Made by a program: the position numbers and the translations under genes. The notes under the pieces were generated by a model, which saw only the letters and a program-made list of their open reading frames with translations, did not search any database and had not been told where the DNA came from. Shown here in pieces: positions 19,992 through 58,597 of a DNA stretch of 64,000 nt (position 1 is the stretch's first letter; each line of letters starts with the position of its first letter). The stretch spans positions 47,645-111,644 of the forward strand of contig CALXAB010000001.1 of assembly GCA_944386175.1 (NCBI GenBank), given 5' to 3'. The DNA comes from an uncultured Clostridia bacterium (GTDB taxonomy: Bacteria > Bacillota > Clostridia > TANB77 > CAG-508).

Positions 19992-20107
19992 ATTTAATTC
20001 GACCTCTTTTCCTTATAACCAATTTATATCACAAAAAGCTAAATTTTCATAGTATTTTACCAATATTTCCAAACATATTTATCCTTAAATTTTAATATAA
20101 TTTTATA

Positions 20108-20345
20108 AGTACACTTAGTGAACTTTTTCTTAAAAATCACTTCTTTTTTGTTCATTTAGTGAACTTTTGCACTCTAAAAAGCGTTTTTTATCCATTCACT
20201 CGGTGAATTTTTGCATCAGATCTGCATAAAATTTTTGTTTTTTTATTAACTCTTGAAGGCTTGCCCTTCAATGTGTATATGCGTTGCGTAATGCACGCTA
20301 TCCTGCCTTTAGTATTCACTTTAGTTCACCTTATCAAAATTAATT
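20108..20345 (-). repeat. partial, orphan copy of the R module (distal half only)
   Basis: Collinear with 51134-51350, 36674-36880 and 43392-43605. Dyads at 20108-20124, 20150-20164 and 20194-20208. Conserved core and hairpin at 20246-20307. No smORF or recombinase adjacent. Confidence 0.85.
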
Positions 20346-20452
20346 TATGTAAATTGTTGAATTATTTCCTTTTTTATGCTATATTAACTGTATCGTTTCA
20401 AAATCTTCTTTATAAAATTTCTACTCAAAATTATTTCAAAGGAGGTGTATTT

Positions 20453-35450: not shown

Positions 35451-36125
35451 TTAAAATTCCCTTATATCATATCTAAAATATAGTCCATCCATTTTTATTT
35501 TATGAAAATCTTTTATTATATTTTCTTTGACTTTATTAAAATCTTTTCCTACTCTTCTTAATGCAAATACTCTACCTCCTGAAGGATATAGTATATTATT
35601 TTTTGATATTATATGTTCCCCTATAATATCTGTTGTATTTTTTACTTTGTTCATACCTAAAATTGGTTCATCAAAACTACTTCTTTCTACTTCTGGATAT
35701 CCTGCTGAAAATCCATACATTGCTATAGAAAAGCAGTCTTTTTTCCAACAATTATTTATCTTTTCTACATCTTCATAAAAGAAATTTATTATATCTATAA
35801 AAGGTTTATTCAGTAACCCTAATAAAGCTAACCACTCTGGATTACCTGTTCTTGTATTATATTCTAATACATATACTTTTTTATCTTCGGTAACCATTAT
35901 TCCTATATATAAAATATAGTTATATTCCATATTTTCTTTTTTCATACCTCTTATAGTTGGTTCTATTATATCTTTTTTTAATTGTTCTTCTTTTTCTGTG
36001 CTAACTCTTGCATAAGCACATACTCTTAAATTACCTTTTATAACTTCTCCTGTTGTTCTATTAATTCTTCCTTTTTTCTTCTCTATTACTTGTACTTTCA
36101 AATTTAACCTCTCTTTCTCAAGCAT
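35451..36125 (-). pseudogene. chimeric ORF: first 48 codons of an LSR gene fused in frame to the C-terminal ~176 aa of a PurD-like (phosphoribosylamine-glycine ligase) gene
   Basis: Residues 1-48 (MLEKERLNLKVQVIEKKKGRINRTTGEVIKGNLRVCAYARVSTEKEEQ) are almost identical to LSR 48681-50573. From 35981 leftwards the sequence matches the PurD C-terminal half (EYNTRTGNPEW, SGGRVFAL, DGLYFRYDI). Confidence 0.8.
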
Positions 36126-36168
36126 AGAGAATCTTTATGTTTGTATTATATACTAAAATTTTATATTT

Positions 36169-36354
36169 TTAAATACCTATGTGGATTAAATTATATTCTT
36201 TTAAAATATTTTGTTTTAGTTCTAAATATCTTTTCTCTTTAATTAATCCTGCATTATATGTTTTATTTAGAATTGCTATTTTAATGCTACAATTAAAAAT
36301 ATTTTCATTTAGTTTTACATTTTTCGTATTATCAAATTTTACTTCGTACAACAT
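36169..36354 (-). CDS. 61-aa conserved small ORF preceding the LSR (copy A)
   Basis: MLYEVKFDNTKNVKLNENIFNCSIKIAILNKTYNAGLIKEKRYLELKQNILKEYNLIHIGI. Nearly identical to copy C and homologous to copy B. Confidence 0.6.
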   Translation of the reverse strand: MLYEVKFDNTKNVKLNENIFNCSIKIAILNKTYNAGLIKEKRYLELKQNILKEYNLIHIGI

Positions 36355-36439
36355 AAAAATCCTCCTCTGCTTGAATTAAATTTCAAAAAAGAGCGACAAA
36401 AAAGCCAGCCGGCTAGCTAGACTGACTTCTTTGTCTTAC

Positions 36440-36890
36440 ATTTTTTGATAATACAATTATATTATGCTGTTCTATAAAGTTCAATTCCCGTTTTTTTCCC
36501 TTTTTTCTATTTTAATTGATAAAGCGTTGACTTTTTAGTTAGTACACTAAGTAAACTTGTGTAAAAATTTTTTTAATTATTTTTTACTTTATTATTTTTG
36601 AGTTCACTTAGTGTACTTTTTGTTTTGTATTTAAAAACCTTAGTTCACTTAGTGAATAAAAAACTAACTTTCAAGTACACTTGGTGAACTTTTTCTTAAA
36701 AATCACTTATTTTTCGTTCATTTAGTGAACTTTTGCACTCTCAAAGGCATTTTTTAGCTGTTCATTCGGTGAATTTCCGCATCAAATTTGCTTAAAATTT
36801 TTGTTCTTTTGTTAACTCTTGAAGGCTTGTCCTTCAATGTGTATAGGCGATGTGTGCACACTCGCTTTCCTGCCTTTAGTATTGTTTTTT
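36440..36890 (-). repeat. R module, copy A
   Basis: Dyads at 36541-36557, 36601-36617, 36642-36658, 36674-36690, 36716-36730 and 36760-36774. Core and hairpin at 36812-36874. Ends 2 nt from the stop of the ABC gene. Confidence 0.85.
36456..36484 (-). promoter_or_regulatory. consensus sigma-A promoter of unit A'
   Basis: TTGAAC (36484-36479), 17-nt spacer, TATAAT (36461-36456). A terminator-like leader hairpin at 36403-36427 plus a T-run follows. Confidence 0.6.
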
Positions 36891-36891
36891 A

Positions 36892-38670
36892 TCATATATT
36901 AATTACTTTTTGTTGACTCATATATAATTTATAATAATTTCCTTTTATGCTCATTAATTCTTCATGAGTTCCATATTCTACTATTTCTTTATCTTTAATA
37001 AAAAATATTCTGTCACTATCCACTATTGTAGATAATCTATGAGCAATCGTTATTACAGTTTTATTTTTAACCATTTCTTTTGTTAGATTTTGTAGCATTT
37101 TTTCTGTTTTTACATCAATCTTACTTGTTGCTTCATCGAAGATTAATATTTTAGGGTTATTAATAATTGTTCTTATATAGCATAATACCTGTTTTTCTCC
37201 ATCTGATAGATTTTTTCCATTACTACTTAATTTTGTATTGTATCCATCTTCTAAACTCATTATCCAATTATGTACATTCAATCTTTTACATATTTCTATT
37301 ACTTTATCATCAGTTATATTTTCATTTCCATATTTTAAATTTTTCATAATGCTTGTACTAAATAAGTAATTTTCTTGTTGCATAATAGCTATCTGTTTTC
37401 TAAGTCTATTTAGTTTTATATTTCTAACATCTTCTCCATCAATAAAAATATTTCCTGAATCTATATCATAAAATCTTCCAATTAGATTTGTAATAGTGGT
37501 TTTTCCACTTCCTGTACTACCTACAATAGCTACTTTTTCTTGCGGTTTTACTTTAAAAGATATATTATTTAAAACTTTATTATTTTCTATATAAGAAAAA
37601 CTAACATTTTTAAATTCTATTTCACCTTTTATTTTGATGTCTTTAGCATCTATTTTATCTTTTATATCTATTTTTTCATCCATTGTTTCAAATATTCTCT
37701 CTAAATATGTAATTGAATTAATAAAATCATCTAATGTTTTAAATAAGTCTTCTATAGGTTGCCAAAAGTTAGATGAATAACTTCCCATAGCAACAATAGT
37801 TCCAACTGATGTAGTTGGATATAAAAACATCGCTCCTACAAAATATATTGTTGCAGTTACCCAATGTGACATTGTTTGTACACTACACCATCCAATATTG
37901 CCAAATTTTATTTGTTTGCAACTTGCATCTTTCCAACTTCTACTTAAATCATTAAATATATCTTCATTCTTTTCTTCTCTATTAAATGCTTGGGTTATTT
38001 GCATTCCTTTTAATGTTTCTAATAGATATGCATTAGTATTAGAATTTTTATTATTAATTAGTAATTTATTTTTTCTCTTTATCTTAGCTGTTGAAGCAAA
38101 TATAAAAATAAGTATTACTATTCCAACTAATGCGATTAATGTTAGTTTCACACTTGTTAAAAACATAAATATCAGAATAATAAGCATATTAAATATGTTT
38201 AAAAATGTTGTTACTAATTTATCTGTAATTAGAGTAGAAACATCTTCTGCATATTCTGTTAGTCTAACTAGTATTTTTCCATGAGGTCTTGTGTCGTAAT
38301 AATTAACTGATAAATACTGAATATGTGAAAACAAATCATTTTTTATATCTTCTACAATATTTTGATTTACTTTAGCCAACATTTTTTTATACACTTTAGT
38401 TACAATAATAGACAATAATACTAAAAATAATGCTAATAATATTATGATAAACAATTTTTCATAATCGCTATTAGGAATAACATCATCGATTACATATTGT
38501 AGTATTTTAGTGATAAATAAAGTAGCTATAATAGATATACAATTTAAAATAAATATAATAATCAATTTTGATTTATATTTTTTTATGTATGTTAAACCTC
38601 TTTTATAATTAGAAAGACTGAATGAAGTATTTTTTTCATCTTGGTCATATTTGTTTACACTCATATACAT
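36892..38670 (-). CDS. ABC exporter, fused permease/ATPase (heterodimer partner 2)
   Basis: Six N-terminal TMs, Walker A GSTGSGKTT, signature LSDGEKQ, Walker B ILIFDEATS. Confidence 0.85.
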   Translation of the reverse strand: MYMSVNKYDQDEKNTSFSLSNYKRGLTYIKKYKSKLIIIFILNCISIIATLFITKILQYVIDDVIPNSDYEKLFIIILLALFLVLLSIIVTKVYKKMLAKVNQNIVEDIKNDLFSHIQYLSVNYYDTRPHGKILVRLTEYAEDVSTLITDKLVTTFLNIFNMLIILIFMFLTSVKLTLIALVGIVILIFIFASTAKIKRKNKLLINNKNSNTNAYLLETLKGMQITQAFNREEKNEDIFNDLSRSWKDASCKQIKFGNIGWCSVQTMSHWVTATIYFVGAMFLYPTTSVGTIVAMGSYSSNFWQPIEDLFKTLDDFINSITYLERIFETMDEKIDIKDKIDAKDIKIKGEIEFKNVSFSYIENNKVLNNISFKVKPQEKVAIVGSTGSGKTTITNLIGRFYDIDSGNIFIDGEDVRNIKLNRLRKQIAIMQQENYLFSTSIMKNLKYGNENITDDKVIEICKRLNVHNWIMSLEDGYNTKLSSNGKNLSDGEKQVLCYIRTIINNPKILIFDEATSKIDVKTEKMLQNLTKEMVKNKTVITIAHRLSTIVDSDRIFFIKDKEIVEYGTHEELMSIKGNYYKLYMSQQKVINI

Positions 38671-40379: not shown

Positions 40380-40505
40380 TTATATTTTTTCTCCAATATT
40401 TATTATATTTTTATATTACTTTTCATATTCTATCATAATTTTATTTCTTTCTCAATAAAATTATAAAGTTTCAAAATATATTTATCCTTACATTTGCTTA
40501 ATTAT

Positions 40506-40581
40506 GAAAAAATCCGCAATAGAAATAATGTCAAGAGCGAGTGATAATGAGTTTATTTACTCTTGATATTATTTTTATTGC
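40506..40581 (-). terminator. long conserved hairpin H (copy b) with T-run
   Basis: On the minus strand: GCAATAAAAATAATATCAAGAG - 22-nt loop - CTCTTGACATTATTTCTATTGC, then GGATTTTTTC. Confidence 0.65.
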
Positions 40582-40821
40582 AGATTAAATTTACCCTGCA
40601 AATGTATGAGGCAAAAAATAAGTATCAGTACATATCTACCGACACTTAAATTTATAAAGATTCTCTATTACTTATTTCATAAATTCTTTCTAGCAATTGA
40701 AATAACTGATAATTTTACATATCTACAATTAAACACAACCTATATATGTCATGCTTATCATAGACACAATCTCAAATTCCCTAGTATTTCAAACACTTCT
40801 ATCAATTTTCTAAAATTTAAT

Positions 40822-41004
40822 TTATGTGTTTCCACTTACCACATCTGCAACTACTTTAACTTTCACATCTGAATTTTGATGTTTTTCTCTTCCATATCTT
40901 CCTTTTTTCTCGAAAGTTATAATCTCTGAAAACATATCAAATTCAAGTATTACCTGTCCTGTTTTAGTTGTAGCACTGCCACACATTCCACATGTGTTGG
41001 TCAT
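40822..41004 (-). CDS. CxxC tail module of LSR B, in a separate overlapping frame
   Basis: MTNTCGMCGSATTKTGQVILEFDMFSEIITFEKKGRYGREKHQNSDVKVKVVADVVSGNT is homologous to the in-frame C-terminus of LSR C. Overlaps the end of LSR B by 41 nt. Confidence 0.5.
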   Translation of the reverse strand: MTNTCGMCGSATTKTGQVILEFDMFSEIITFEKKGRYGREKHQNSDVKVKVVADVVSGNT

Positions 41005-42679
41005 CTCTGGTTGCAGTAAGTTTTAAATGTTGTTTATCTCCTGTTGCAGTAAAATTGTCTTTACAATTTATTTCTGTTCCGTTTTTACAAATAAACCTTA
41101 TTGTATATGGATTTATTGTACCATTTTCTAATGTTTCCCCAATTATTACTTTCTCTATTATACATTCAAAAATATCTTTATCAAAATTTTTCATTATTTC
41201 CATATCTTTAAATAAACCTTTAAACTTGTTTAATCTATGTTTAATACTTTCATTTCTGTTTGTGTCTTTTAGTAGGTTTTGTATTTTCTGTTCTACTTTT
41301 AATAGTTCTATGTTTAGCTCATCATATTTTAAAGTATATTGTTCTTTATTTATTCTGCCTTCTAAGTTTAGTTCTAATAGATTATTAAGTTTCTTGTTTA
41401 TTTTCTCTTTGTCTTTTTCTAGCTTATTTACTACTGTTTCTGTAGTATTTTCTTTTAAGACATTTTCTATTTTTTCTAAAAAATCTTCTACTACTTTTTT
41501 ATTGTTGTTACAGAGTATTCTATATCCTTGTACAAAACAATCTTCTAGTATTTCTTCTGGTATTGCTTTACAGTATGGGCATTCTTCTTTTCCATGTTTT
41601 GCTCTTTTGATACATTGCCATACTGCTTTTTCATATTTTCTTTTTGAGTTCCAGTTTCTTCTTGTAAGTAAGCTACCACAAAATCCACAATATAATTTAC
41701 TACTAAAAGCATATTTCTTACTATAGTTATTATTTCTTCTTCCTGTTTCTCTTGTTCCTACTCGTTTTATTCTTATTTCTTGTACTCTATCAAATAACTC
41801 TTTACTAATAATTGGCTCATGATGTTCTTTTATATAATGCTTTTCTGCTTCTCCTAAATTGCTTAATCTTTTATGTGATATTGGATCTATTGTAAATGTT
41901 TTTCCCATTAGCACATCTCCAATATATTTTTCATTTTTTAGTATTCCTCTTATTGTTGATTCGTTCCAATTATCATTACCTTTTGGGGATTTAATGCCTT
42001 TTGCTTTTAGTTCTTTTGCTATTGTACTTGAACCTATTCCGTCTACATATCTTTCAAATATATATTTTATAACTTCTGCTTGTTCCTCATTTATAGTTAT
42101 CTGTTTTGTTATTAAATCATAGTTATAACCGTAACAACCATTATAGCCAATTAACTCTCCCCTGTCTTTCTTCATTTTTAGTCCAAGCAATACATGTGAA
42201 GATATGTTCTCACTTTCTTGTTGTGCCATAGCACTTAATACTGTTAGTAGCATTTCTCCTGTTCCTGATAGAGTATTTAGATTTTCTTCTTCAAATAAAA
42301 CTGCAATGTTCTTTTCTTTTAGCATTCTTACATATTTTAAAGTATCTAATGTGTTTCTAGCAAATCTTGATATGGATTTTGTTAAAATCATATCAAATTT
42401 TCCAGACATTCCATCTGTTATCATTTTCATAAAGTCTGTTCTTTTAAAATCTAATGTGCCACTTATAGATTCATCTGCATATATTCCTGCAAATTGCCAT
42501 TCAGATTTGCTATTGATTTTTTCATCATAATACTTTAATTGTGATTGGTAACTATTTAATTGTTCTTTATTTCCTGTACTAACTCTACAATATGCACATA
42601 CTCTTAATCTTTCTTTGATTGTTGTACCTGTTACTCTGTTAATTCTTCCGTTTGTTTTCTCTATGACTTGAATTTCCAT
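40964..42679 (-). CDS. large serine recombinase, unit B
   Basis: Resolvase catalytic domain (VCAYCRVSTGNKEQ, SISRFARNTLD), recombinase domain, zinc ribbon (CGFCGSLLTRRNW...CPYCK) and coiled coil. Confidence 0.9.
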   Translation of the reverse strand: MEIQVIEKTNGRINRVTGTTIKERLRVCAYCRVSTGNKEQLNSYQSQLKYYDEKINSKSEWQFAGIYADESISGTLDFKRTDFMKMITDGMSGKFDMILTKSISRFARNTLDTLKYVRMLKEKNIAVLFEEENLNTLSGTGEMLLTVLSAMAQQESENISSHVLLGLKMKKDRGELIGYNGCYGYNYDLITKQITINEEQAEVIKYIFERYVDGIGSSTIAKELKAKGIKSPKGNDNWNESTIRGILKNEKYIGDVLMGKTFTIDPISHKRLSNLGEAEKHYIKEHHEPIISKELFDRVQEIRIKRVGTRETGRRNNNYSKKYAFSSKLYCGFCGSLLTRRNWNSKRKYEKAVWQCIKRAKHGKEECPYCKAIPEEILEDCFVQGYRILCNNNKKVVEDFLEKIENVLKENTTETVVNKLEKDKEKINKKLNNLLELNLEGRINKEQYTLKYDELNIELLKVEQKIQNLLKDTNRNESIKHRLNKFKGLFKDMEIMKNFDKDIFECIIEKVIIGETLENGTINPYTIRFICKNGTEINCKDNFTATGDKQHLKLTATRDDQHMWNVWQCYN

Positions 42680-43199: not shown

Positions 43200-43640
43200 T
43201 CTATTTTTGATATAATTCTAGTATCTAATTTTATAAGTACACTAAGTAAACTAAAAATTGTATAATTTTAAATTGCAGTTCACTTGGTGTACTAGAAAAA
43301 TATAACAAAAGTTCACTAAGTGTATTTGTAAATTTTGTTTTATTTTCACATTCACTTAGTGAACTAAATTCAAAAATATTATTCAATATCAAGTACACTT
43401 GGTGAACTTTTTCCCAAAATAAGTGAATTTTTTTAATTTTTTAATTCACCATTTTTAATTTTGAACGAAGAATAGCGGGTTTGAGCCAGTTCACCGAGTG
43501 AATTTTTACATCATATTTGCATAAAATTTTTGTTTTTTTATTAACTCTTGAAGGCTTGTCCTTCAATATGTATAGGCATTTTGTTAAGAATGCTATCCTG
43601 CCCTCATTTTCAATGAGGTATTTTGCTCTTAAAATGTACT
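43200..43640 (-). repeat. R module, copy B (diverged)
   Basis: Dyads at 43236-43252, 43277-43293, 43310-43326, 43350-43365, 43392-43408 and 43488-43504. Outward-facing half sites at 43422-43450. Core and hairpin at 43541-43603. Confidence 0.8.
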
Positions 43641-43685
43641 TATTCTACTTAATTAAATATACTTATCCTTAAATCCTCTTAATCG

Positions 43686-43788: not shown

Positions 43789-45225
43789 TTAACTATTTAT
43801 AAAAAATTGAATTATTGCAAATATTCCCATATCTGAAATTGTTTTTATTGCATCTACATTAGCAATAACTTTATAAGGGTGATGAATTACTAAATCTAAA
43901 TAGTTTTTCATTCCTTCATTATTAAAACATGTCTCCCATGCTCTTGAAATAGTATCGTCATCAATAAGATTTTGTTTATCTATTGATATTTTATTTATAA
44001 TCTTCTCTAATCTCAAGTCCAAATTATTATTTGCAGATTTCCATTTTTCCCATTTTCCTTTGTTTATTAAAAAATAGATGCTTGATTGTTCTAATAATGA
44101 GCGGATTAAAAAGCAATATGATATTGGGTAATTTTTATATAAATTTCCAAATGATAAATGCTGAATTTCATAGCATAGATTTTTAATCCCTTTAGCTCTA
44201 TCATTACTATATTTTAGTTTGCTACAATTAATATTTTTAAATAAAATACTATTGTCTTTTCTTGTTAATCTGATTTTATTAAATGCTATACTTTCATTTA
44301 TTTTATTTTTTACTATTTCACTTTCATTGGCATTATTATGTTTTTCTTCTCTACCATTAGAAAATATCTTCATTTGTTCATTTTTATTTTCTAAATTTTC
44401 ATTTATTTTATCTTTGCTGTCAAACCTTTCACTAACATTATTTTCTATATTGCCATACAAATATTTTTCTATATTAGCATTATTTTTTATTGTGTTACTT
44501 GTAATCCTACCACTTACAATATCTTGAACAATTCGTAATACTTTCTTGTCTAATTCATTTATTGAAGACAATGGCATTAAAACATTGTTATTAAAAGAAA
44601 TATTCAGATATTCTTTACCAACTTTTGAAGAAACAATCTTTTCAAACTTATTTACTGAAAAATTATTGTCAACTCCATCAAATGCTTTTTTACAAAATCC
44701 TTGTAATTGTGAAAATATATTTTTTACTCCCATTTTATCTTCAAATCTTTTTATTGAAGCTGTATCCCATTTTAAAGCTCCTGTATCAGTTGTATGTACA
44801 TTTCTTATATATCCAGCACAATCTTCAAATGAAGTGGCCACATAACAAGGAATTTGAAAATATTCTTCTCCTTGAATTCCTGCACTCATTGCATATATGC
44901 TTCTTATTTGTGTATATGAAAAGTATTTAAAAGATTCTACCAATTTAGGATTTTTTAAGATTTTCATTGCTGTTAATCTTCTATTACCATCCCATGCCAC
45001 AAATTTTTCTTTTTTCTCATCATAAGTGACTGTAACTATTGATTGTGGATACCAACCATTTGTGTAAATATCACTAATTAACTTATGCATTGCCTTCGCT
45101 TCTTTAGAATTTCTCACCAATTGTTGCATTATAAAAAGTTCATCCGCTATCATAATTTGTGTATGTCTTGGATTCTCTGGATTTACTAATATTTTTTCTA
45201 TGTCTATTAGTTGATGTTCTCTCAT
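43789..45225 (-). CDS. ParB/Srx-fold N-terminal domain protein with a large uncharacterised C-terminal region
   Basis: ILVNPENPRH and VAWDGNRRLTAMKIL (ParB-like nuclease/NTPase motifs). GGGGGA RBS before MREHQL. Confidence 0.55.
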   Translation of the reverse strand: MREHQLIDIEKILVNPENPRHTQIMIADELFIMQQLVRNSKEAKAMHKLISDIYTNGWYPQSIVTVTYDEKKEKFVAWDGNRRLTAMKILKNPKLVESFKYFSYTQIRSIYAMSAGIQGEEYFQIPCYVATSFEDCAGYIRNVHTTDTGALKWDTASIKRFEDKMGVKNIFSQLQGFCKKAFDGVDNNFSVNKFEKIVSSKVGKEYLNISFNNNVLMPLSSINELDKKVLRIVQDIVSGRITSNTIKNNANIEKYLYGNIENNVSERFDSKDKINENLENKNEQMKIFSNGREEKHNNANESEIVKNKINESIAFNKIRLTRKDNSILFKNINCSKLKYSNDRAKGIKNLCYEIQHLSFGNLYKNYPISYCFLIRSLLEQSSIYFLINKGKWEKWKSANNNLDLRLEKIINKISIDKQNLIDDDTISRAWETCFNNEGMKNYLDLVIHHPYKVIANVDAIKTISDMGIFAIIQFFINS

Positions 45226-45294
45226 ATATAATTCCCCCATTTTTTACCTTATAAAGTCTTTCGTAAATCCCTCATCATTCTTAAGTATATTATT

Positions 45295-46791
45295 CTATTT
45301 TTTTGCAATATATTTTTGATTTTTAGTATTTGGTTTATCTGGTATAGTCATTTGCAATTTTCCACTATCTAATAATGGTCTCATGTATTTTAAATAGAAA
45401 TTTCTTCTGTCTTTTAATCCTAAATATGCCATTATTTCTTTTGTTGTTTTTGGTTCTCTACAAAATTCTAATATTTTATCTTGATGGGTATCTTGGTGGA
45501 TATCTTGGTGGGTTGTTGGTCGGTCTTTTATCTCATTTTCAAATCTATCATGTATAAATATTGTTGTAATAAAATAATCTCTTGTTTCATTTGTTTCAAA
45601 CTCTGGTTCTTTTGAGCCATTATTTTTCAATGCTCTTTTTATTTTTGGAATACCTGTATTTCTACCTTCTGTTAATTTTAATTCTTTTAAAAACTCTCCA
45701 ATTCTACGATTTCTATATTTTCTTGCTATCATATTTTTATCTTCAATTGATTTTTCGCTTATTGAACGGTCTGGTCCTGGATAACTTACAATATGAATTC
45801 TATCTTCCATTATTCTTACTTCTACTGGTTCCCTTACATCATATCCTCTATGATAAACTGCATTTACTAATGCTTCTTCTATTGCTTGATATGGATAATT
45901 AAAAAATCTTACAGCCTCCGCTTGTCCATCTATCTTTAAAATTTTTTCCATAATAACAGTATTTTTAATATATGTTAAAGCACTTTTTATCATAGTATCA
46001 ATAGGTCCTTTAAATATTTGCTCTGTCATATCATCACCTTCTGGACCGTTTCTTAAATCTACTACTTCTATTTGTGAATATGGAAAGAATTTTTGTGGCT
46101 CATCATTAAAAAACATTAACCCTACATTTAAAGGTTTCATATATTCTGGTGTTCCATCTACTATTCTCATACTTTTACATAAATCTATAAAACTCATTGT
46201 TTCGGATTCTTTTAATAGTTCACTCTTTATCTCATATAAGTAATTTTGAATTAGTGGTAGTTTTAAATCTTGAATTTGTGCCTCATGATTCATTCTATCA
46301 TCGAATGGTATTACTCTTGCCATATCATATAATTCTTTTTGCTCTACTTCTGTAGCTTTTACTGTACTGGACATTTTTCTAATATAATATGAATATCCTT
46401 TTGAAAAATCTTTATCTAGTGTTGTTGGACATTTGTATGGTCTATTCTGACCACCAAAACACCATACTACTAGTATATTTTTACCTTTATATTGAGCAAC
46501 ATCTACAATTGGTGTATAGGCTGGCTGTATCATTTTACATTTTGTTAGCAATTCTTTTTGAATTTTATCTATTTCAGATAATTGTAGCCCTTCAAAATCT
46601 TTCTTAGGTCTACCATTTGCTTCTTCAACACCTATTAAAATATATCCTCCACCCCAGTTATCTATATCATTTGCAAAAGCACAAATTGTATGTAATATTG
46701 GTTCTGGATTCCAGTTTCTCTTTAATTCTAATCTTGCATTTTCTACAATGTTTTCATTTAGTATATTTTCTATACTTGTAGGTAATCTCAT
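45295..46791 (-). CDS. AlbA_2 (Schlafen-like) + HATPase_c_4 + C-terminal wHTH protein
   Basis: ENARLELKRNW...FANDIDNWGGGYILIGVEE (AlbA_2) and EALVNAVYHRGY (ATPase-like). C-terminal wHTH-like tail. HQDIHQDTHQD repeat. Confidence 0.7.
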   Translation of the reverse strand: MRLPTSIENILNENIVENARLELKRNWNPEPILHTICAFANDIDNWGGGYILIGVEEANGRPKKDFEGLQLSEIDKIQKELLTKCKMIQPAYTPIVDVAQYKGKNILVVWCFGGQNRPYKCPTTLDKDFSKGYSYYIRKMSSTVKATEVEQKELYDMARVIPFDDRMNHEAQIQDLKLPLIQNYLYEIKSELLKESETMSFIDLCKSMRIVDGTPEYMKPLNVGLMFFNDEPQKFFPYSQIEVVDLRNGPEGDDMTEQIFKGPIDTMIKSALTYIKNTVIMEKILKIDGQAEAVRFFNYPYQAIEEALVNAVYHRGYDVREPVEVRIMEDRIHIVSYPGPDRSISEKSIEDKNMIARKYRNRRIGEFLKELKLTEGRNTGIPKIKRALKNNGSKEPEFETNETRDYFITTIFIHDRFENEIKDRPTTHQDIHQDTHQDKILEFCREPKTTKEIMAYLGLKDRRNFYLKYMRPLLDSGKLQMTIPDKPNTKNQKYIAKK

Positions 46792-46842
46792 CTTCTCACC
46801 TTTCTTTTTCAAATGTCCGTTTTTTCGGACTTATAAAATTTT

Positions 46843-48506: not shown

Positions 48507-48680
48507 TCTATCTAAATTCTCCCTATCTCTATTCTTTTATATTTTGACCATATTTTACCATAAAACAATAAAAAAATAAAGCATATAACAAATTAAATTA
48601 TTACATACTTTACCTTTCAAGTTTTATCTCCAAACATTTTTATTTTTCGTTGACAAATCGTTGACATTATCAACAAGAAA

Positions 48681-50573
48681 TTATACTACTCCGCACACCA
48701 TGTCAACTTCTATCGTTACTTTAATTTTATGATTTTCTGTTCTTTTAACCTTATTTTTGCCTTTTCTATCAAAACTAATAAAATCTTCAAAAGCAGTAAA
48801 TTGGGCTATTGTATCGAATCTTTCAGACATAGCACCGAGCAACACTCCACATGGCTCACACCCAGTCTGTAGATAGTTTTGGCTTACCTCGTATGATGAC
48901 TGTTGCAAACTACCTTGATTTTTATCTTTTTGACATTTGATTTCGTTTCCAGATTTTAGGATAAATGTTATTACTCTTGGATTTACATCTCCATTTTGTT
49001 CTTTTTCTCCTATTATAACTTTTTCTATCATTAATTCAAAAACATCTTTATCAAATGTTGGCATTATTTCATCATCTTTAAATAGACTTTTAAACTTGTT
49101 TAATCCTTGATTTAAACTAATTGAATCTTCTAACTCTAGTTGTAAATGTTCTTGCTCTTTTTCTATTTTGTTTATCTTGTTTTGTAATTTTGCCTTTTTA
49201 TCTTTTAATGTTTCAAGTGTTATTGTTCCATTCAAGTTTAAATCAATTAACTTGTCTATCTTTTCTTTTAAAGTTTGTTTTTCTTCTTCTAATTTTTTAA
49301 TAGAACTTTCATTACTTTCTTCTTGTATGATTTCTTCCATTTGTTTTAAGAATGTTTTGATTAGTTTTTTGTTATTATTACATAAAAGTTTATAACTTTC
49401 TGTAAATGCTTCTTCTATAATGTTTTCTTTCATTGCTTTACAATATGGGCAATTTTCTTTTCCATGTTTTACAAATTCCATACAATGCCATACCGTAATA
49501 CTATTTTTTGTTCCAGAGTGCCAGTTTCTTCTTGTTAATAAACTTCCACAAAAACCACAATATATTCTACTACTAAAAGGATATTTTCTGCTAAAGTTTC
49601 CTTTTCTTCTTCCAGAGCCTCGTACTCCTCCTCGCTTTTGTAATATTTCTTGTGCTTGATTAAACATTCTTTCTGAAATAATTGGTTCATGATGTTCTTG
49701 TATGTAATACTGATTTTCTTCTCCCATATTGACTACTCTTCTATGTGAGATTGGATCTGTTGTATATGTTTTTCCTTGTAAGACATCTCCTTTGTATTTT
49801 TCGTTTTTCAAAATACCTCTTATAGTTGAGTCATGCCATTGTTTCTTTCCTGTTGGTGTTTTATATTTCATAGCAGTTAGTTCTTTTGCAATTGTTGTGC
49901 AACCTACTCCTTGACAGTATCTTTCAAAGATATATCTTACTATTTCTGCTTCTTGATAATTTACTGATATTTTCTTTGTTTCTTTATCATATACATATCC
50001 TAAACATCCATTATATCCAATTAATTCTCCTCTTTTTTGTTTCATCTGTAATCCTAGTTTTACATGAGAAGATATATTTTCGCTCTCCTGCTGTGCCATT
50101 GCACTCATTACTGTTAGCATTACTTCGCCAGATAATTCTAAAGTATTGATGTTTTCTTCTTCAAAATAAATAGTGATTCCTTTTTCCTTTAATAATCTTA
50201 CATACTTTAAAGTATCTACTGTATTTCTTCCAAATCTTGATATTGATTTTGTAATTATCATGTCAAATTTGTTTTCTGTTGCATCTTGCATCATTCTCAT
50301 AAAGTTATCTCTTTTATAGTCAAGTGTTCCTGTTATCCCTTCATCTGCATAAATCCCTACATAAGTCCAATCACTTCTTGATTTTATTTTTTCTTCATAA
50401 TATTTTAGCTGAGAATTATAACTATTTATTTGTTCTTCTTTTTCTGTACTAACTCTTGCATAGGCACATACTCTTAAATTGCCTTTTATAACTTCTCCTG
50501 TTGTTCTATTAATTCTTCCTTTTTTCTTCTCTATTACTTGTACTTTCAAAATTAACCTCTCTTTCTCAAGCAT
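48681..50573 (-). CDS. large serine recombinase, unit C, with an in-frame C-terminal CxxC tail
   Basis: VCAYARVSTEKEEQ, SISRFGRNTVD, CGFCGSLLTRRNW...CPYCK and a coiled coil. About 90 extra C-terminal residues are homologous to ORF 40822-41004. Confidence 0.9.
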   Translation of the reverse strand: MLEKERLILKVQVIEKKKGRINRTTGEVIKGNLRVCAYARVSTEKEEQINSYNSQLKYYEEKIKSRSDWTYVGIYADEGITGTLDYKRDNFMRMMQDATENKFDMIITKSISRFGRNTVDTLKYVRLLKEKGITIYFEEENINTLELSGEVMLTVMSAMAQQESENISSHVKLGLQMKQKRGELIGYNGCLGYVYDKETKKISVNYQEAEIVRYIFERYCQGVGCTTIAKELTAMKYKTPTGKKQWHDSTIRGILKNEKYKGDVLQGKTYTTDPISHRRVVNMGEENQYYIQEHHEPIISERMFNQAQEILQKRGGVRGSGRRKGNFSRKYPFSSRIYCGFCGSLLTRRNWHSGTKNSITVWHCMEFVKHGKENCPYCKAMKENIIEEAFTESYKLLCNNNKKLIKTFLKQMEEIIQEESNESSIKKLEEEKQTLKEKIDKLIDLNLNGTITLETLKDKKAKLQNKINKIEKEQEHLQLELEDSISLNQGLNKFKSLFKDDEIMPTFDKDVFELMIEKVIIGEKEQNGDVNPRVITFILKSGNEIKCQKDKNQGSLQQSSYEVSQNYLQTGCEPCGVLLGAMSERFDTIAQFTAFEDFISFDRKGKNKVKRTENHKIKVTIEVDMVCGVV

Positions 50574-50616
50574 AGAGAATCTTTATGTTTGTATTATATA
50601 TTAAAATCTTATATTT

Positions 50617-50802
50617 TTAAATACCTATATGAGTTAAATCATATTCTTTTAAAATATTTTGTTTTAGTTCTAAATATCTTTCCTCTTTAATTAGTCCTGC
50701 ATTATATGTTTTATTTAGAATTGCTATTTTAATGCTACAATTAAAAATATTTTCATTTAGTTTTACATTTTTCGTATTATCAAATTTTACTTCGTACAAC
50801 AT
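50617..50802 (-). CDS. 61-aa conserved small ORF preceding the LSR (copy C)
   Basis: AGGGAGAA RBS. Same protein as copy A apart from a few substitutions. The 105-aa form in the ORF track would run through the leader hairpin and promoter. Confidence 0.6.
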   Translation of the reverse strand: MLYEVKFDNTKNVKLNENIFNCSIKIAILNKTYNAGLIKEERYLELKQNILKEYDLTHIGI

Positions 50803-50905
50803 AAAAATTCTCCCTTGCTTAAATAAAATTTCAAAAAAGAGCAATAGAAAAAGCCAGTCGGCTAGCTTCGACTGACTTCTTTGTCTGACATTTTTTGATA
50901 ATACG

Positions 50906-50934
50906 ATTATATTATGATGTTCTATAAAGTTCAA
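50906..50934 (-). promoter_or_regulatory. consensus sigma-A promoter of unit C
   Basis: TTGAAC (50934-50929), 17-nt spacer, TATAAT (50911-50906). A leader hairpin AGTCAGTCG..CGACTGGCT at 50852-50878 plus TTTTT follows. Confidence 0.6.
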
Positions 50935-50939
50935 TTCCC

Positions 50940-51355
50940 GTTTTTTTCCCTTTTTTCTATTTTAATTGATAAAGTGTTGATTTTTTAGTTAGTACACTAA
51001 GTGAACTTGTGTAAAAATTTTTTTAATTATTTTTTACTTTATTATTTTTGAGTTCACTCGGTGTACTTAGTTTTTTATTATATCAATTTTTAGTACACTT
51101 AGTGAACTAATTATAAATTATTTCATAAAATTTAGTACACTTGGTGAACTTTTTCTTAAAAATTACTTATCTTTCGTTCATTTAGTGAACTTTCACACTC
51201 TAAAAGAGATTTTTTAGTCATTCATTCGGTGAATTTTTGCATCAAATTTGCTTAAAATTTTTGTTCTTTTATTAACTCTTGAAAGCTTGACCTTCAATGT
51301 GTATATGCGTTGCGTGATGCACGCTATCCTGCCTTTAGTGTTCACTTTATATCCT
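50940..51355 (-). repeat. R module, copy C
   Basis: Dyads at 50991-51007, 51051-51067, 51092-51108, 51134-51150, 51176-51190 and 51220-51234. Core and hairpin at 51272-51333. Abuts the stop codon of the 617-aa gene. Confidence 0.85.
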
Positions 51356-53209
51356 TTAATTAGTATTAGATTCTGATGTAGTTTTATTTACAACACCCAA
51401 GTTCTTAATACTATCTTGTAAACTTTCATCTGGAATAAAGTTTCTACAATTTTCTAATTTATAAAATTCCCCTAATTTATCTATATCTTTATATAAGAAA
51501 TAAAAATAGTTTTTTAATGCATTTTCTGTTGTTTCTAATCTAGGTCTTAATGAGTATGCTCTTTTCTTCTTATAGAAATAGTTTTCATTAAATAATTTAT
51601 ATAAATTATTTAGTTCATCACTATCTAATGTTATTTTGTGAAATCTCGTTTCTTTGAAAATATAATTTATTTTATCAATGTCTATATTTAAATCATCAAC
51701 ATATTCTCTAATGTTATTCTTGCTTATTATAGTTATTATAGATAATGTAATACTCATAATTATATAATCCATAAATTCTTTTGATAAATTCATTGTCCTA
51801 AATATTTTTATTGATCTAATATCATTGTTTTCAATCATTTTTAAAAACATTATAATGATTGGTTCACCCTTTATAAGATATGGTATAAATATTTCTTCTT
51901 CATGTATATTTTTTCTTTGCAGAAAATCATTAATACTTCTATCTGGAAATTTTTCCCTATGTTCCATTAATCTAATATTATCGTATAATTCTTCTAGTAC
52001 TCTGTACTTTTCATTTTTAGTTAAATTCTTATTTTCAATAACACATGTATATACAGATTCTAAATATCTATTACTAGTAAACATATATATAGAATCATAT
52101 TTATATAATCTACAATAGCTAAAATCTATAACATTTTCATATAGAAAAATTAAATACATATCTAATTTAATAATTCTCCATACAAGATTTATATATTCTT
52201 TTTCTTGACTTTCAGTTTGAATATATTTTATTTTATCTATTAAATTTGCAATATTTTGCATTTTATAATCATCATGAACAGGCACAAATTCATAATAAGC
52301 AAACATTGTATAAAGTTTACAATATATATTTGCAGCCTCTATATGTTTATTATATAAAATCAAATGCGAAACTATTTCATGTATAGCACTAATCAAATCA
52401 CTTCTAAAAATCATTTCTGTATAATATTCTTGAAGAATTTTTTTGTTATTAAATAAAGTTAAATCTATAAGATTCATTATGTTGTGAATATTATAATTAT
52501 AATCATTATCATTTTTTTGTATTAATACTAATGTTTGATTCTTTAAGTCTGTGATATCTTTGCACCCATGGCTATTTAGAGGAATCGCCTTTTTTATATG
52601 CTTCTTTTGTTTCTCTAAATACATACATAGTAAACTGTTTCCAAACCAATTTTTATGAGTGTAAAACCAAATCATTTTAATACACATATAAAATATAACT
52701 ACAAGAGAAAGCAAAAAATTTATTAATATTAGTATTTGACTACTGCCTTTTAGGCATTGTATAATATTTACAAATAATAGGAGAACTAAAATTATAAAAA
52801 TTTTTAGCAATGATAAAAAACTATTGTTAGGGAAAATAACATTAATATGTTTTTTTCCCAATATATAACTTTCAGACAACCCAGATAATAAAGATATTAC
52901 TGAAATTATTATCAATGTATTACTAATTTGAGCTACTAATATATCATTTGAATCAATGTTAAATTCTTTATTCAAGTCTAATATATTTTCAATTTTGTAA
53001 TCATTAATAGCATAAAAAATTACAAACATACTAAATATAACTATACTAAACATAAAAATAATCATTAAAAAATTCATAATTTTTTGTTTAACTACAAAAT
53101 ATTTTTTATTATCATATATTTTATACCATTTTAAAAATTCTTTTATTTTATAATTTTTATTTAAAATAAATCTTCTTATTTTTTTTAATTTACCATTAGA
53201 ATCTTCCAT
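51356..53209 (-). CDS. 617-aa membrane protein of unknown function, downstream of AbiEii
   Basis: About five N-terminal TM helices, then a ~400-aa soluble region with no motif I recognise. Lies 56 nt after abiEii. Confidence 0.55.
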   Translation of the reverse strand: MEDSNGKLKKIRRFILNKNYKIKEFLKWYKIYDNKKYFVVKQKIMNFLMIIFMFSIVIFSMFVIFYAINDYKIENILDLNKEFNIDSNDILVAQISNTLIIISVISLLSGLSESYILGKKHINVIFPNNSFLSLLKIFIILVLLLFVNIIQCLKGSSQILILINFLLSLVVIFYMCIKMIWFYTHKNWFGNSLLCMYLEKQKKHIKKAIPLNSHGCKDITDLKNQTLVLIQKNDNDYNYNIHNIMNLIDLTLFNNKKILQEYYTEMIFRSDLISAIHEIVSHLILYNKHIEAANIYCKLYTMFAYYEFVPVHDDYKMQNIANLIDKIKYIQTESQEKEYINLVWRIIKLDMYLIFLYENVIDFSYCRLYKYDSIYMFTSNRYLESVYTCVIENKNLTKNEKYRVLEELYDNIRLMEHREKFPDRSINDFLQRKNIHEEEIFIPYLIKGEPIIIMFLKMIENNDIRSIKIFRTMNLSKEFMDYIIMSITLSIITIISKNNIREYVDDLNIDIDKINYIFKETRFHKITLDSDELNNLYKLFNENYFYKKKRAYSLRPRLETTENALKNYFYFLYKDIDKLGEFYKLENCRNFIPDESLQDSIKNLGVVNKTTSESNTN

Positions 53210-53265: not shown

Positions 53266-54111
53266 TTATTTTTTTAATTCATTCTTTATTTCTTCTAATA
53301 CTCCCATCGTATCTTCATAATTAATATCTTCTGCATAACTAAATTTAGATTGATAATTCTTCCAATGCTCTTTCAGAACATCACTTTCTTTTATAACTTC
53401 CATTATCTCATTTATATTATTTAATTTATCCATTGAACCTCTATATTCAAATTTCTTCAATATAGCTTGTCCTAATAATTCTTTATTAAAATTTTGTTGT
53501 TGAGTAGTCCATAATATATAAATATCATAAAAATCTCTCGCTCTTGTAGTATCTATATTTCTTGATATAATTGTTTCAAATTTATCAGCTATTACTGTTT
53601 CCATATTATATGCTAATATTTCTATTGAACGATTTTCAAACATTAAATCGAACTTATAATTTACTTCTTTTGGAACAATTACATCTCCTGTTGTTATATC
53701 TAATTTCATTGGTACAACTAACTTATCAAATTTAGCATCTAAAGCTACTCTGTATCCTCCATATTCATCTTCTTGTCTTATTTCTTTTATACTTCTAAAT
53801 TCAAATGCTACTCCATCATCTAAATCTATATTAAAAATTTCATTTAAGATATTTTCAAGATTATCCTTTTCTAAATCAAATCCTTTTATCGTTGCATCCA
53901 TATCAAGAGTATTTCTCATGTCTATTCCAACTATTGCTGTTATTAACATTCCTCCTTTTAATACAAATTTATATTTGTATTTTGATACCGAAATTCTTTC
54001 CAATAGTCTTTCTAGCATATAGTTTTGTAAAATAATGTTTTCATTCACATCTACTTTATCTGACATATTCTTTATCCATGCTTTTAATTGTGCTCTATTT
54101 TTTGCTATCAC
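53266..54111 (-). CDS. AbiEii/AbiGii-family nucleotidyltransferase toxin (third locus, intact)
   Basis: FVLKGGMLITAIVGIDMRNTLDMDATIKG nucleotidyltransferase core. 281 aa. Overlaps the abiEi stop by 4 nt. Confidence 0.8.
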   Translation of the reverse strand: MIAKNRAQLKAWIKNMSDKVDVNENIILQNYMLERLLERISVSKYKYKFVLKGGMLITAIVGIDMRNTLDMDATIKGFDLEKDNLENILNEIFNIDLDDGVAFEFRSIKEIRQEDEYGGYRVALDAKFDKLVVPMKLDITTGDVIVPKEVNYKFDLMFENRSIEILAYNMETVIADKFETIISRNIDTTRARDFYDIYILWTTQQQNFNKELLGQAILKKFEYRGSMDKLNNINEIMEVIKESDVLKEHWKNYQSKFSYAEDINYEDTMGVLEEIKNELKK

Positions 54112-54701
54112 AATAACACCTCCAAGTATTTTCTTACTTCATCTTCAATATTAAATAATTTTGCATATTTGTGTAGTTTAATAGAGTTTCTATCTTTTCT
54201 TTCAGCATATCTTTTCATCGCATCTGTAAATAAGGCAATTTCTATTTTTTTCTTATTTCTGATAATGTCACATATTGTTCTCTCTAAATCATAAACTTTA
54301 ACTTTGTTTCCATATGGTGTATTCATTTCTATTATTCCTAATTCATATAATTCATCTTTTAAATAGAAAAATTGATAGTTTCTATCTTTTAGTAATTTAG
54401 TATTATAGTAACTAGGTATAGTCAATTGATATTTTATGGGAGTTCTATCACATAAATCATGAAAATACAAAGCTGTCTCATGAGAGAATATCCCTTTTTT
54501 ACAAATTGCTTGTGTGATAAAATAATTATCTTCAAATGTATCTGCTCCAATATATACTCCTCTTGCTACTCTATCTATCAATCCCTTTTCTATCATCCTT
54601 GTTAAAATCTTATTATTTATCCCAATATCTTCTACTTGATATGTTTCAATCACTCCATTATTATTTTTTAATAATTTTTCTACTTTTTCTATATCATCCA
54701 T
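54108..54701 (-). CDS. AbiEi-family antitoxin (third locus)
   Basis: NNGVIETYQVEDIGINNKILTRMIEKGLIDRVARGVY wHTH region. Paralog of 13551-14141. Confidence 0.75.
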   Translation of the reverse strand: MDDIEKVEKLLKNNNGVIETYQVEDIGINNKILTRMIEKGLIDRVARGVYIGADTFEDNYFITQAICKKGIFSHETALYFHDLCDRTPIKYQLTIPSYYNTKLLKDRNYQFFYLKDELYELGIIEMNTPYGNKVKVYDLERTICDIIRNKKKIEIALFTDAMKRYAERKDRNSIKLHKYAKLFNIEDEVRKYLEVLL

Positions 54702-57833: not shown

Positions 57834-57929
57834 ATTCTATTCTCCTAATCTTTACTGTATATAATATATCATAAATTCCTTAATTTTACAATGAAATCGC
57901 CAATATTTTAATATTACATATATCTTTAC

Positions 57930-58364
57930 ATTTGCTTAACTACCCCAAAATCTCCAATAGAAATAATGTCAAGAGCGAGTGATAACAAGTTCATTTACTC
58001 TTGACATTATTTGTATTGGAGATTAAAATTGCTTTGCAAATGTATAGCACAAATTTTTCGCTTTTTTCGTGATATAAAATTCCATCGGACGAAAATTTCA
58101 ATTTTTTCGTCCGATAAATTTTTATAAGCCGAATTTCATTAAATTTTCGTCCTATAAAAAATAAGCATCAGCAGATATCTACCAACACTTAAATTTATAA
58201 AGATTCTCTATAACTTATTTCATAAATTCTTTCTAACTATTAAAATAACTAATAAATTCACATATCTACTAACCACCTCAACCTATATATGTTTTTCTTG
58301 CCATAGATACAATCTCAAATTTCCTAGTATTTCAAACACTTTCATCAATTTTCTAAAATTTAAT
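57930..58364 (-). repeat. copy d of the non-coding segment found downstream of LSR B (40480-40821), with hairpin H at 57952-58021 and a ~120-bp insertion
   Basis: Collinear with 40480-40821. The insertion at ~58040-58165 carries TTTTCGTSNKATAAA motifs, including the perfect IR ATCGGACGAAAA / TTTTCGTCCGAT (58084-58115). Confidence 0.8.
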
Positions 58365-58545
58365 TTATGTGTTTCCATTTACCATATCTGCAACTACTTT
58401 AACTTTCACATCTGAATTTTGATGTTTTTCTCTTCCAAATCTACCTTTTTTATTAAAAGTTATAATCTCTGAAAACATATCAAAATCAAGTATTACCTGC
58501 CTTTCTTTAGTTGTAGCACTGCTACACACTCCACATGTGTGGTCG
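58365..58545 (-). pseudogene. orphan 3' end of an LSR gene (CxxC tail only)
   Basis: HTCGVCSSATTKERQVILDFDMFSEIITFNKKGRFGREKHQNSDVKVKVVADMVNGNT with no start codon. Similarity to LSR B stops at ~58545, next to CACATGTG (58532-58539). Confidence 0.75.
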
Positions 58546-58597
58546 CTTATAAATTCAATTACAAAATTTTTTTTTGAATATTAAAAATTTTTTATGT

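Follow-up and report, generated by a model that had tools for sequence, protein, structure and literature searches.

Streptococcal integrative and conjugative elements (ICEs) that encode a single serine integrase have been found in rumA, with repeats of 2-21 bp in both rumA and the integrase gene (Ambroset et al. 2016, PMC4701971). Upon their integration, the 3' parts of rumA and of the integrase gene are reciprocally exchanged, which changes the length, the sequence and the reading frame of both C-termini. The excised form encodes a different integrase C-terminus, and an analogy to the integrase Int of phage Mx8 has been drawn (PMC4701971). In the vanG and ICE-r elements, which also reside in rumA, the recombinase gene at the right end lacks a stop and continues as a fusion into the final 11 codons of rumA, whose 5' part is fused to a left-end coding segment that has no start of its own; these elements target the dinucleotide GA (Srinivasan et al. 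2014, PMC4120198). Here, we describe two large serine recombinase (LSR) genes, LSR B and LSR C, and a short coding segment that recurs at their 3' ends, hereafter called the tail, in DNA of an uncultured Clostridia bacterium (assembly GCA_944386175.1, contig CALXAB010000001.1, positions 47,645 to 111,644). The window, that is, the whole stretch of 64,000 nucleotides (nt) analysed, has a GC content of about 25%; nearly all of its genes, including all recombinase genes, tails and cores given below, lie on the minus strand.

Our analysis indicates that LSR B and LSR C very probably serve as integrases for small integrative islands, whose target is the 3' end of the host gene rumA/rlmD, and that the tail is cut off and swapped at each integration. 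The product of rumA/rlmD is the 23S rRNA U1939 methyltransferase. Reciprocal 3'-end exchange is already published for serine integrases that target rumA and is seen here in uncultured gut Clostridia. As in the streptococcal ICEs, integration is in rumA, the attachment (att) core lies within the integrase open reading frame (ORF) and 3' ends are exchanged. The nearest annotated relatives of LSR C are recombinases of Streptococcus '_rum' elements (phi-SsuZKB4_rum and phi-SgaBSJ31_rum), with 46% identity over residues 34-542. In contrast to the streptococcal ICEs, the islands described here measure 8-10 kb, have no conjugation or mobilization domains in the scanned ORFs, carry defence and transport cargo and occur in uncultured gut Clostridia; their left end gives rumA back a near-native C-terminus, read in an overlapping frame, instead of providing a new one; there are three tail families, and two element types alternate in tandem arrays. 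The vanG and ICE-r elements share with the islands a left-end coding segment that lacks its own start and is joined to the 5' part of rumA, and GA is found within the core here as well. However, the vanG segment comprises 115 codons and is translationally fused to rumA, whereas the segment studied here has about 57 codons and is out of frame except in one protein (P0177). Phage Mx8 also carries its att site within the integrase ORF (attP in intP), with different C-termini for the prophage and the excised enzyme (cited in PMC4701971), but Mx8 Int is a tyrosine recombinase with an unrelated target. CTn5 of Clostridioides difficile 630 delta-erm (cited in PMC4701971) is, as here, a serine-integrase element of a clostridial host with rumA (CD3393) as its primary site; it differs in being a large conjugative element and is likened to LSR B and LSR C by target, not by sequence. 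Our findings would extend the family of rumA-targeting serine integrases to small defence-gene islands of uncultured gut Clostridia.

Both LSR B (40964..42679, 571 aa) and LSR C (48681..50573, 630 aa) contain Resolvase, Recombinase and Zn_ribbon_recom domains (Pfam). Here and in all related loci, the recombinase gene is located at the extreme end of its element and reads outward, LSR B to a core at 40983-40994 and LSR C to a core at 48842-48853. The LSR C ORF passes its core in frame with a C-type tail and thereby carries a 57-residue tail segment as its C-terminus. The LSR B ORF, in turn, runs through the core out of frame with the adjoining B-type tail and stops 10 codons past the core. The coding segment of this tail comprises 57 codons from core to stop (40822..40993) and is part of a 60-aa ORF (40822..41004) that overlaps the end of LSR B in another frame. 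B and C tails share 29% identity over 56 aa without a gap (pairwise E 3e-9). A third, orphan copy is encoded at 58365..58529, where the frame remains open further upstream. The initial annotation had been made from the sequence alone and had listed these three copies; all of them were located where it had placed them (B at 40822-41004, the orphan at 58365-58545 and the LSR C copy in frame).

The repeat shared by unit B and the orphan is larger than the 58-aa module recognized at first. The two regions are 89.8% identical over 391 nt (40613-41002 and 58156-58544, E 5e-141) and 84.7% identical in a second segment (40477-40607 and 57915-58045), and the repeat therefore extends over about 530-630 nt. 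Similarity stops at 41002/58544, which is 6 nt past the palindrome CACATGTG, in line with the earlier observation that it is lost beside this palindrome. In unit B, the tail is followed by a conserved non-coding part (40469..40821) with a 3' untranslated region (UTR) and terminator-like hairpins. One of these (40619-40648) was found by a terminator scan; another, long and with a U-run behind it (40511-40586), has a predicted folding energy of -34.3 kcal/mol (z -7.65). The orphan is a second B-type module (57915..58544) with a core at 58526-58537, a tail ORF down to 58365, a UTR and terminators. Just upstream of its core are about 12 nt (58545..58556, AGCGACCACAC...) that remain from the 3' end of a third LSR type; they match CTACAGATGAGCGACCACACA in the related loci L039 and L043, the blastn homology of which to the window begins at 58550.

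To place these units in context, species-representative genomes were scanned. This yielded 78 loci, all from gut metagenome-assembled genomes labelled uncultured Clostridium or Clostridia, which were classified by tblastn; 76 copies were aligned. The loci included B-type LSRs, LSRs with the tail in frame (L039 and L043) and a 603-aa type ending about 60-70 nt before the tail, while most copies had no LSR within 8 kb upstream. In the alignment (-150 to +750 nt), conservation of the B-type module starts abruptly at the boundary CA/TGTGGA and extends for about 525 nt. This sharp start coincides with the att core, while what adjoins it on the left differs between loci and may be rumA, LSR B, another LSR type or spacer. 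The common core CATGTGGAATGT, located at the junction of LSR B and the B tail (40983..40994), spans the His-Val-Glu-Cys codons of the rumA frame. Across the loci the shared core comprises 12-14 bp, CATGTGGA(R)TG(Y)GT, and contains GA; as the tails on its right side are homologous, the crossover itself is not mappable.

An intact 458-aa gene that ends ...PVDMFPFTSHVECVAVLQLKQDR before its stop codon immediately precedes the B-type module in 34-40 of the 76-78 loci. This gene is rumA/RlmD (TIGR00479, 439 bits against a cutoff of 183.6), and its junction with the module is at the His codon of HVEC. A restored rumA C-terminus (40953-40997) likewise overlaps the first ~15 codons of the B-type tail of the window in a different frame. 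The C-type tail unit (48678..48856, 176-179 nt) encodes SHVECCSVLCLKDSIQ and a stop, again a rumA-like C-terminus, in its other frame; it is found directly 3' of rumA in L053 (726-904) and L096, and 5-7.5 kb upstream of LSR B in L053, L080, L017, L078 and L083. The initial annotation could not recognize that the sequence overlapping the first 15 tail codons is the 3' end of the host rumA, the target of these recombinases. Side observations on this target come from L061 (6704-7918) and L087 (5041-8001), in which rumA has variant ends (HVECVAVLKLK and HVECCSVLELK, respectively) and a B-type module follows only 1.2-3 kb beyond; these regions are probably small or decayed elements between two cores.

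Six loci show the order rumA, B module, about 5-7 kb of cargo and C-type LSR (L020, L021, L036, L044, L068 and L070), and L053 shows the order rumA, C tail, cargo and LSR B. From these orders it follows that one element, termed EC, extends from a B module to LSR C, and a second, termed EB, from a C tail to LSR B. The orphan is thus the left (attL-side) end of the integrated element EC. It does not stem from an ordinary deletion unique to this genome, as had been considered.

Further evidence for an exchange at the core came from the combinations of recombinase bodies and tails. The last 195 residues of LSR C, used as a query, returned proteins, many of them fragments, that were sorted by the sequence following the ...SSYE.S.NYLQ... 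motif. C-type bodies were joined to C tails in many cases, to tails of a third family, D, in eight (P0080, P0082, P0083, P0086, P0146, P0165, P0170 and P0182), to in-frame B tails in four (P0081, P0096, P0167 and P0168), and to short, unrelated or rumA-derived ends in others (e.g. P0138, P0151, P0158, P0113 and P0192). L039-type bodies occurred with B tails (L039, L043, P0017 and P0031) as well as with C tails (P0145, P0147 and L017). Such pairings would be expected from a crossover at the boundary of body and tail with reciprocal exchange of the 3' ends. The survey of LSR homologues proposed with the initial annotation thus found tailed, differently tailed and tail-less versions. In protein P0177, the C-terminal half of rumA is fused in frame to a C-type tail (...DMFPFTRSCGVLLGAMSKRLDEIVEF...), which resembles the fusions of rumA with a left end reported for vanG elements.

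We propose the following sequence of events. Most lineages of this clade, those of the C type and the L039 type among them, carry the attP crossover core CATGTGGA(R)TG(Y)GT within the ORF, between the body and the ~57-codon tail, and integration would linearize the circle at this core. Thereafter, the recombinase body would lie at the right end and read outward into whatever adjoins, while the left end, attached to the rumA body, would receive the tail, the 3' UTR and the terminators, i.e. the ~525-nt module. Translated in the frame of rumA, the initial 12-15 codons of the tail would rebuild a rumA-like C-terminus at this end (HVECVAVLQLKQDR and a stop; HVECVAVLQLK...). Repeated integration at the rumA-proximal junction would generate tandem arrays in which each LSR body abuts the tail of its neighbor; in such an array, LSR C would therefore read in frame into the tail of EB. 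LSR B, which has a different frame at the core, would always terminate 10 codons after it. The hairpins of the B module are as expected if the recombinase transcription unit of the circular form had its 3' end there. As an observation on these hairpins, an imperfect hairpin of about 76 nt with a U-run is found in both B-type modules (40511-40586 and 57949-58024) and across the related loci, and its length exceeds that of an ordinary terminator stem.

Other explanations of the tail have to be weighed against this proposal. The tail and the 525-nt module might be native host DNA located 3' of rumA, i.e. the attB flank, so that the LSRs merely read into host sequence. The position of the module directly behind intact rumA in the 34-40 loci would agree with this, as would the conservation at the nucleotide level past the stop codon of the tail and the fact that about half of the rumA-module loci have no LSR within 8 kb downstream, although in a 10-kb element the LSR would lie beyond a flank of 8 kb. 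However, a second genome scan, seeded with rumA, identified close orthologues (58-82% identity) without a tail (L093, L094, L097, L100, L102 and L104). Five of these (L093, L094, L097, L102 and L104) lack the module and have a terminator of their own; rumA of L093 (77% identity), for example, ends HVECVATLQLK and a stop, directly followed by its terminator. In L098 (82% identity), there is no tail, and only a remnant of about 16 nt of the module is kept. Moreover, three divergent tail families alternate behind rumA, with a B tail in L110, a C tail in L096 and a D tail in L095. Homologous tails are also encoded within other LSR ORFs, upstream of the core: the 603-aa LSRs of L063, L089, L045, L031 and L054 end ...IVLLDFIDQQNFIAYDRDKEGNFKKKTIKKVRVRVECDMSNEN with a stop about 60 nt upstream of the same core, and the 595-600-aa LSRs of L069, L016 and L078 end similarly. 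On the strength of the tail-less rumA orthologues and of the tails internal to other LSR ORFs, we rejected a host origin, which we regard as highly improbable. For the same reasons, the tail appears to be an ancestral C-terminal segment of this recombinase clade that was brought to rumA by the elements. Very unlikely, too, is an independent small gene of 47-60 aa at the left end of the element, expressed from the rumA transcript, e.g. as a directionality or regulatory factor. Gene callers report a stand-alone ORF in 72 of 72 matches, tail codon 3 is ATG or GTG throughout, and the frame is open in 72 of 76 copies with wobble at the Gly codons. The alternation of ATG and GTG, however, equals the GAA/GAG wobble of the rumA Glu codon, no obvious Shine-Dalgarno sequence was seen when the junction was read by eye, and LSRs of the C type and the L039 type carry this segment in frame as their C-terminus, whereas the 603-aa LSRs contain it internally. 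A role as a small gene and a role as a recombinase C-terminus are not mutually exclusive.

The offset frame of LSR B could also result from a frameshift, either as a pseudogene or as a sequencing or assembly error, with the true protein having an in-frame tail. Indeed, the B copy reads GACCAACAC where the orphan has GACC-ACAC, and removal of one A would fuse LSR B to the tail. Yet the bases left of the core are non-homologous, being the 3' end of LSR B in one copy and the L039-type remnant in the other. Furthermore, the same 571-aa LSR B with an identical +1 offset to the tail is found in 15 loci of other genomes. LSR B is intact in these loci, with 76-94% amino acid identity where aligned and the full 571-aa ORF in ten (82-94%), and among the classified loci every B-type LSR is offset from the tail by +1. 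LSR B and the overlapping tail ORF are also present in eight independent metagenome assemblies and in another genome adjoin a different cargo. The single extra A was therefore rejected as a simple frameshift. As the offset recurs in the 15 related loci and the eight assemblies, the sequencing error that had been considered for B is refuted, and we find hardly any room for this explanation. Rather than a sequencing error or a recent pseudogene, LSR B is a naturally tail-less lineage. Likewise most improbable is a programmed +1 ribosomal frameshift by which a fraction of translation events would yield a fusion of LSR B and tail. It would agree with the strict conservation of the +1 offset and with a tail frame that is open only 6 codons upstream of its ATG. 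However, no slippery or stimulatory motif was apparent at the junction, which was read by eye without a motif search, and the tail beside LSR B belongs to a neighboring element and changes with the context. In addition, all 15 LSR B orthologues end ...TATR(E/D)KQH-(M/T)W(N/S)(A/V)... with a stop at most 10 codons past the core; the residues after the core are not conserved and vary with the rumA wobble, and three orthologues stop earlier. The tail ORF is thus offset from LSR B, as had been noted before, but there is no change of frame inside LSR B: its ORF merely crosses the core in another frame.

An imperfect 24-nt repeat near this junction (40994-41017 and 41027-41050) had been linked to the frame change. 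It is present, with 19 of 24 positions identical, and corresponds to a 33-nt (11-aa) unit, TA.xDKQH..., that the LSR B body carries twice at its 3' end (40994..41050), the recombinase-side arm of the att site. This 11-aa repeat is kept in all 15 orthologues, with three copies in L083 and L090, and does not cause any change of frame. Tandem Repeats Finder reported no repeat in 40900-41200, and the repeat is backed solely by its conservation in the orthologues.

A protein search with the tail alone gave 72 matches, all of them short ORFs of 42-99 aa and many on contigs of about 1 kb. According to the entropy at each position of the aligned copies, wobble follows the rumA frame in tail codons 1-15 and the tail frame thereafter (codons 16-49), where the third positions of two Gly codons (GGN) are fully degenerate. 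In 72 of the 76 copies, no stop codon interrupts the tail frame for at least 49 codons. The first Cys of the CxxC motif is Cys in 62 and Arg in 14 copies, the second Cys in 43, Arg in 32 and Tyr in one, and CxxC is also variable in the C-type tails. Cys alternates with Arg because the first base of each Cys codon is the wobble position of a rumA codon, His for the first and Cys for the second. CxxC thus follows rumA wobble and is not a conserved metal site. A zinc-binding role in DNA recognition, as proposed in the initial annotation, thus found no evidence: the tail has a single Cys pair, compared to the four Cys/His ligands expected of a zinc domain, and it has no match in Pfam, even at E<=10. 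A relationship to a DUF4368-like motif was unsupported as well by the empty Pfam search at this threshold. The structure prediction that had been suggested for the tail yielded AlphaFold pLDDT values of 41-42 and no confident fold. Of the roles that had been offered for the tail, namely a mobile domain, a hot spot for rearrangement or proximity to a recombination site, a separable module with a recombination site as its 5' boundary remains, while a free-standing mobile domain does not. As a side observation, proteins P0036 and P0062 have mosaic tails in which the first ~12 residues are C-type (CGVLLGDASKRID) and the remainder is B-type; this points to a possible crossover or gene conversion within the tail, about 35-40 nt past the core.

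Several points weigh against the proposed integration into rumA with exchange of the tail. The window holds only the last 15-16 codons of rumA, three times, with the rumA body outside, and we infer from the related loci that the array is attached to rumA in this genome. The published target dinucleotide GA within the shared core is no proof of the crossover point. A circular junction or an empty site of this species is not among the observations, and evidence for excision to a circle and re-integration is indirect, coming from alternative junctions in other assemblies. In the genome loci, which represent few independent species, complete LSR C genes always occur with a C tail and LSR B genes always with a B tail; this constant pairing would also fit a composite unit of two recombinases flanked by B modules. 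Moreover, part of the conservation of the tail is not at the protein level, because the tail ORF ends ...VKVKVVA and a stop in 52 of the 76 copies while nucleotide conservation runs past this stop. For the same reason, part of the B-type module is constrained at the level of DNA or RNA. Finally, AlphaFold did not predict a confident fold for the tail alone (pLDDT 41.8) or for the last 137 residues of LSR C (pLDDT 41.5). A structured RNA or a known RNA family was dropped as an identity of the tail and module: Rfam (E<=1, 35000-60000) gave only two chance miRNA-like matches, and the hairpins are terminator-like.

The division of the recombinase gene at its own crossover site may, as a rather doubtful possibility, serve as a switch that ties the directionality of the enzyme to its integration state. 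The conserved tail would then be supplied only by the excised circle or by a neighbor in an array, and the enzyme of a singly integrated element would be tail-less and might behave differently, e.g. with a bias against or towards excision, while rumA would stay functional owing to the overlapping frame. The LSR B lineage, being tail-less, would then represent a natural variant no longer under this control. If so, no separate directionality factor would be needed to control the direction. Because one enzyme occurs naturally in tailed, differently tailed and tail-less versions, an effect of the C-terminus on directionality could be tested on this set. In any case, integration as proposed would reduce the apparent frameshift, the orphan peptide and the CxxC motif to one ordinary mechanism, an att site inside an integrase gene. 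Annotation pipelines will keep calling the tails stand-alone ORFs of 47-60 aa and the recombinases variable in length or "frameshifted", and the shared core and the pairings of bodies and tails may be used in att-site catalogues to define attP, attB, attL and attR of this clade.

Within the window, the elements form an array that, in minus-strand order, begins with the remnant of the L039-type LSR end (12 nt, 58545-58556). Element EC follows from 58544 to 48857, with a SnoaL-like gene, APH, GNATs, Sel1, AbiEi/AbiEii, a 617-aa protein and LSR C. Element EB extends from 48856 to ~40995-40997 and contains HD, a His_Phos-like gene, a Schlafen/AlbA_2 protein, a 483-aa protein and LSR B. Next come another B module (41002-40469), two ABC transporter genes, a truncated C-type LSR and purD'. 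In the ORFs scanned between 43789 and 57833, the domains found were HD, Schlafen/AlbA_2, AbiEi/AbiEii, GNAT, APH and Sel1, or none; relaxase, coupling protein and type IV secretion system domains were absent from these ORFs, some small ORFs being outside the scan. The scanned ORFs thus contain no conjugation or mobilization module of the kind that defines an ICE. The cargo looks defence-related: EB encodes a Schlafen/AlbA_2 - HATPase_c_4 - Fic-like_C protein (45295-46812) adjoined by the 483-aa protein (43789-45240), and EC encodes the AbiEi/AbiEii pair (53266-54701) and the 617-aa protein (51356-53209), with no Pfam match for either the 483-aa or the 617-aa protein. A dyad, CAACAC-N7-GTGTTG, seen by eye across the predicted attP of EB (end of LSR B and C tail), had no weight in our conclusions.

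C-type LSR genes with internal deletions recur among the related loci, with codons ~50-105 lost in L018 (2633-4210) and codons ~31-105 lost in L069 (13714-15265). In protein P0187, the first 68 LSR residues are joined directly to the tail. These cases suggest that a breakpoint recurs in the gene's 5' part. At the far end of the array, an ORF on the minus strand (35451-36125) consists of two gene remnants joined at about 35977, namely the first 49 codons of a C-type LSR and the C-terminal half of purD (GARS_A, GARS_C), and the ~750 nt upstream of the LSR remnant are 91% identical to the LSR C copy (35977-36880 and 50425-51339). The fusion looks like a deletion that removed the rest of the element together with flanking chromosome; the same fusion is found in L001-L005. 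A 242-nt repeat occurs in four copies (20108-20349, 36674-36915, 43403-43644 and 51134-51375) and a motif containing GTACACTTGGTGAAC occurs five times, with dyads at 20083, 36649, 43324, 43367 and 51109. Repeat and motif lie upstream of each LSR operon, which includes a small ORF of 58-61 aa, and the motif possibly serves the elements as operator or promoter region; the copy of the repeat near 20.1 kb has no adjoining LSR.

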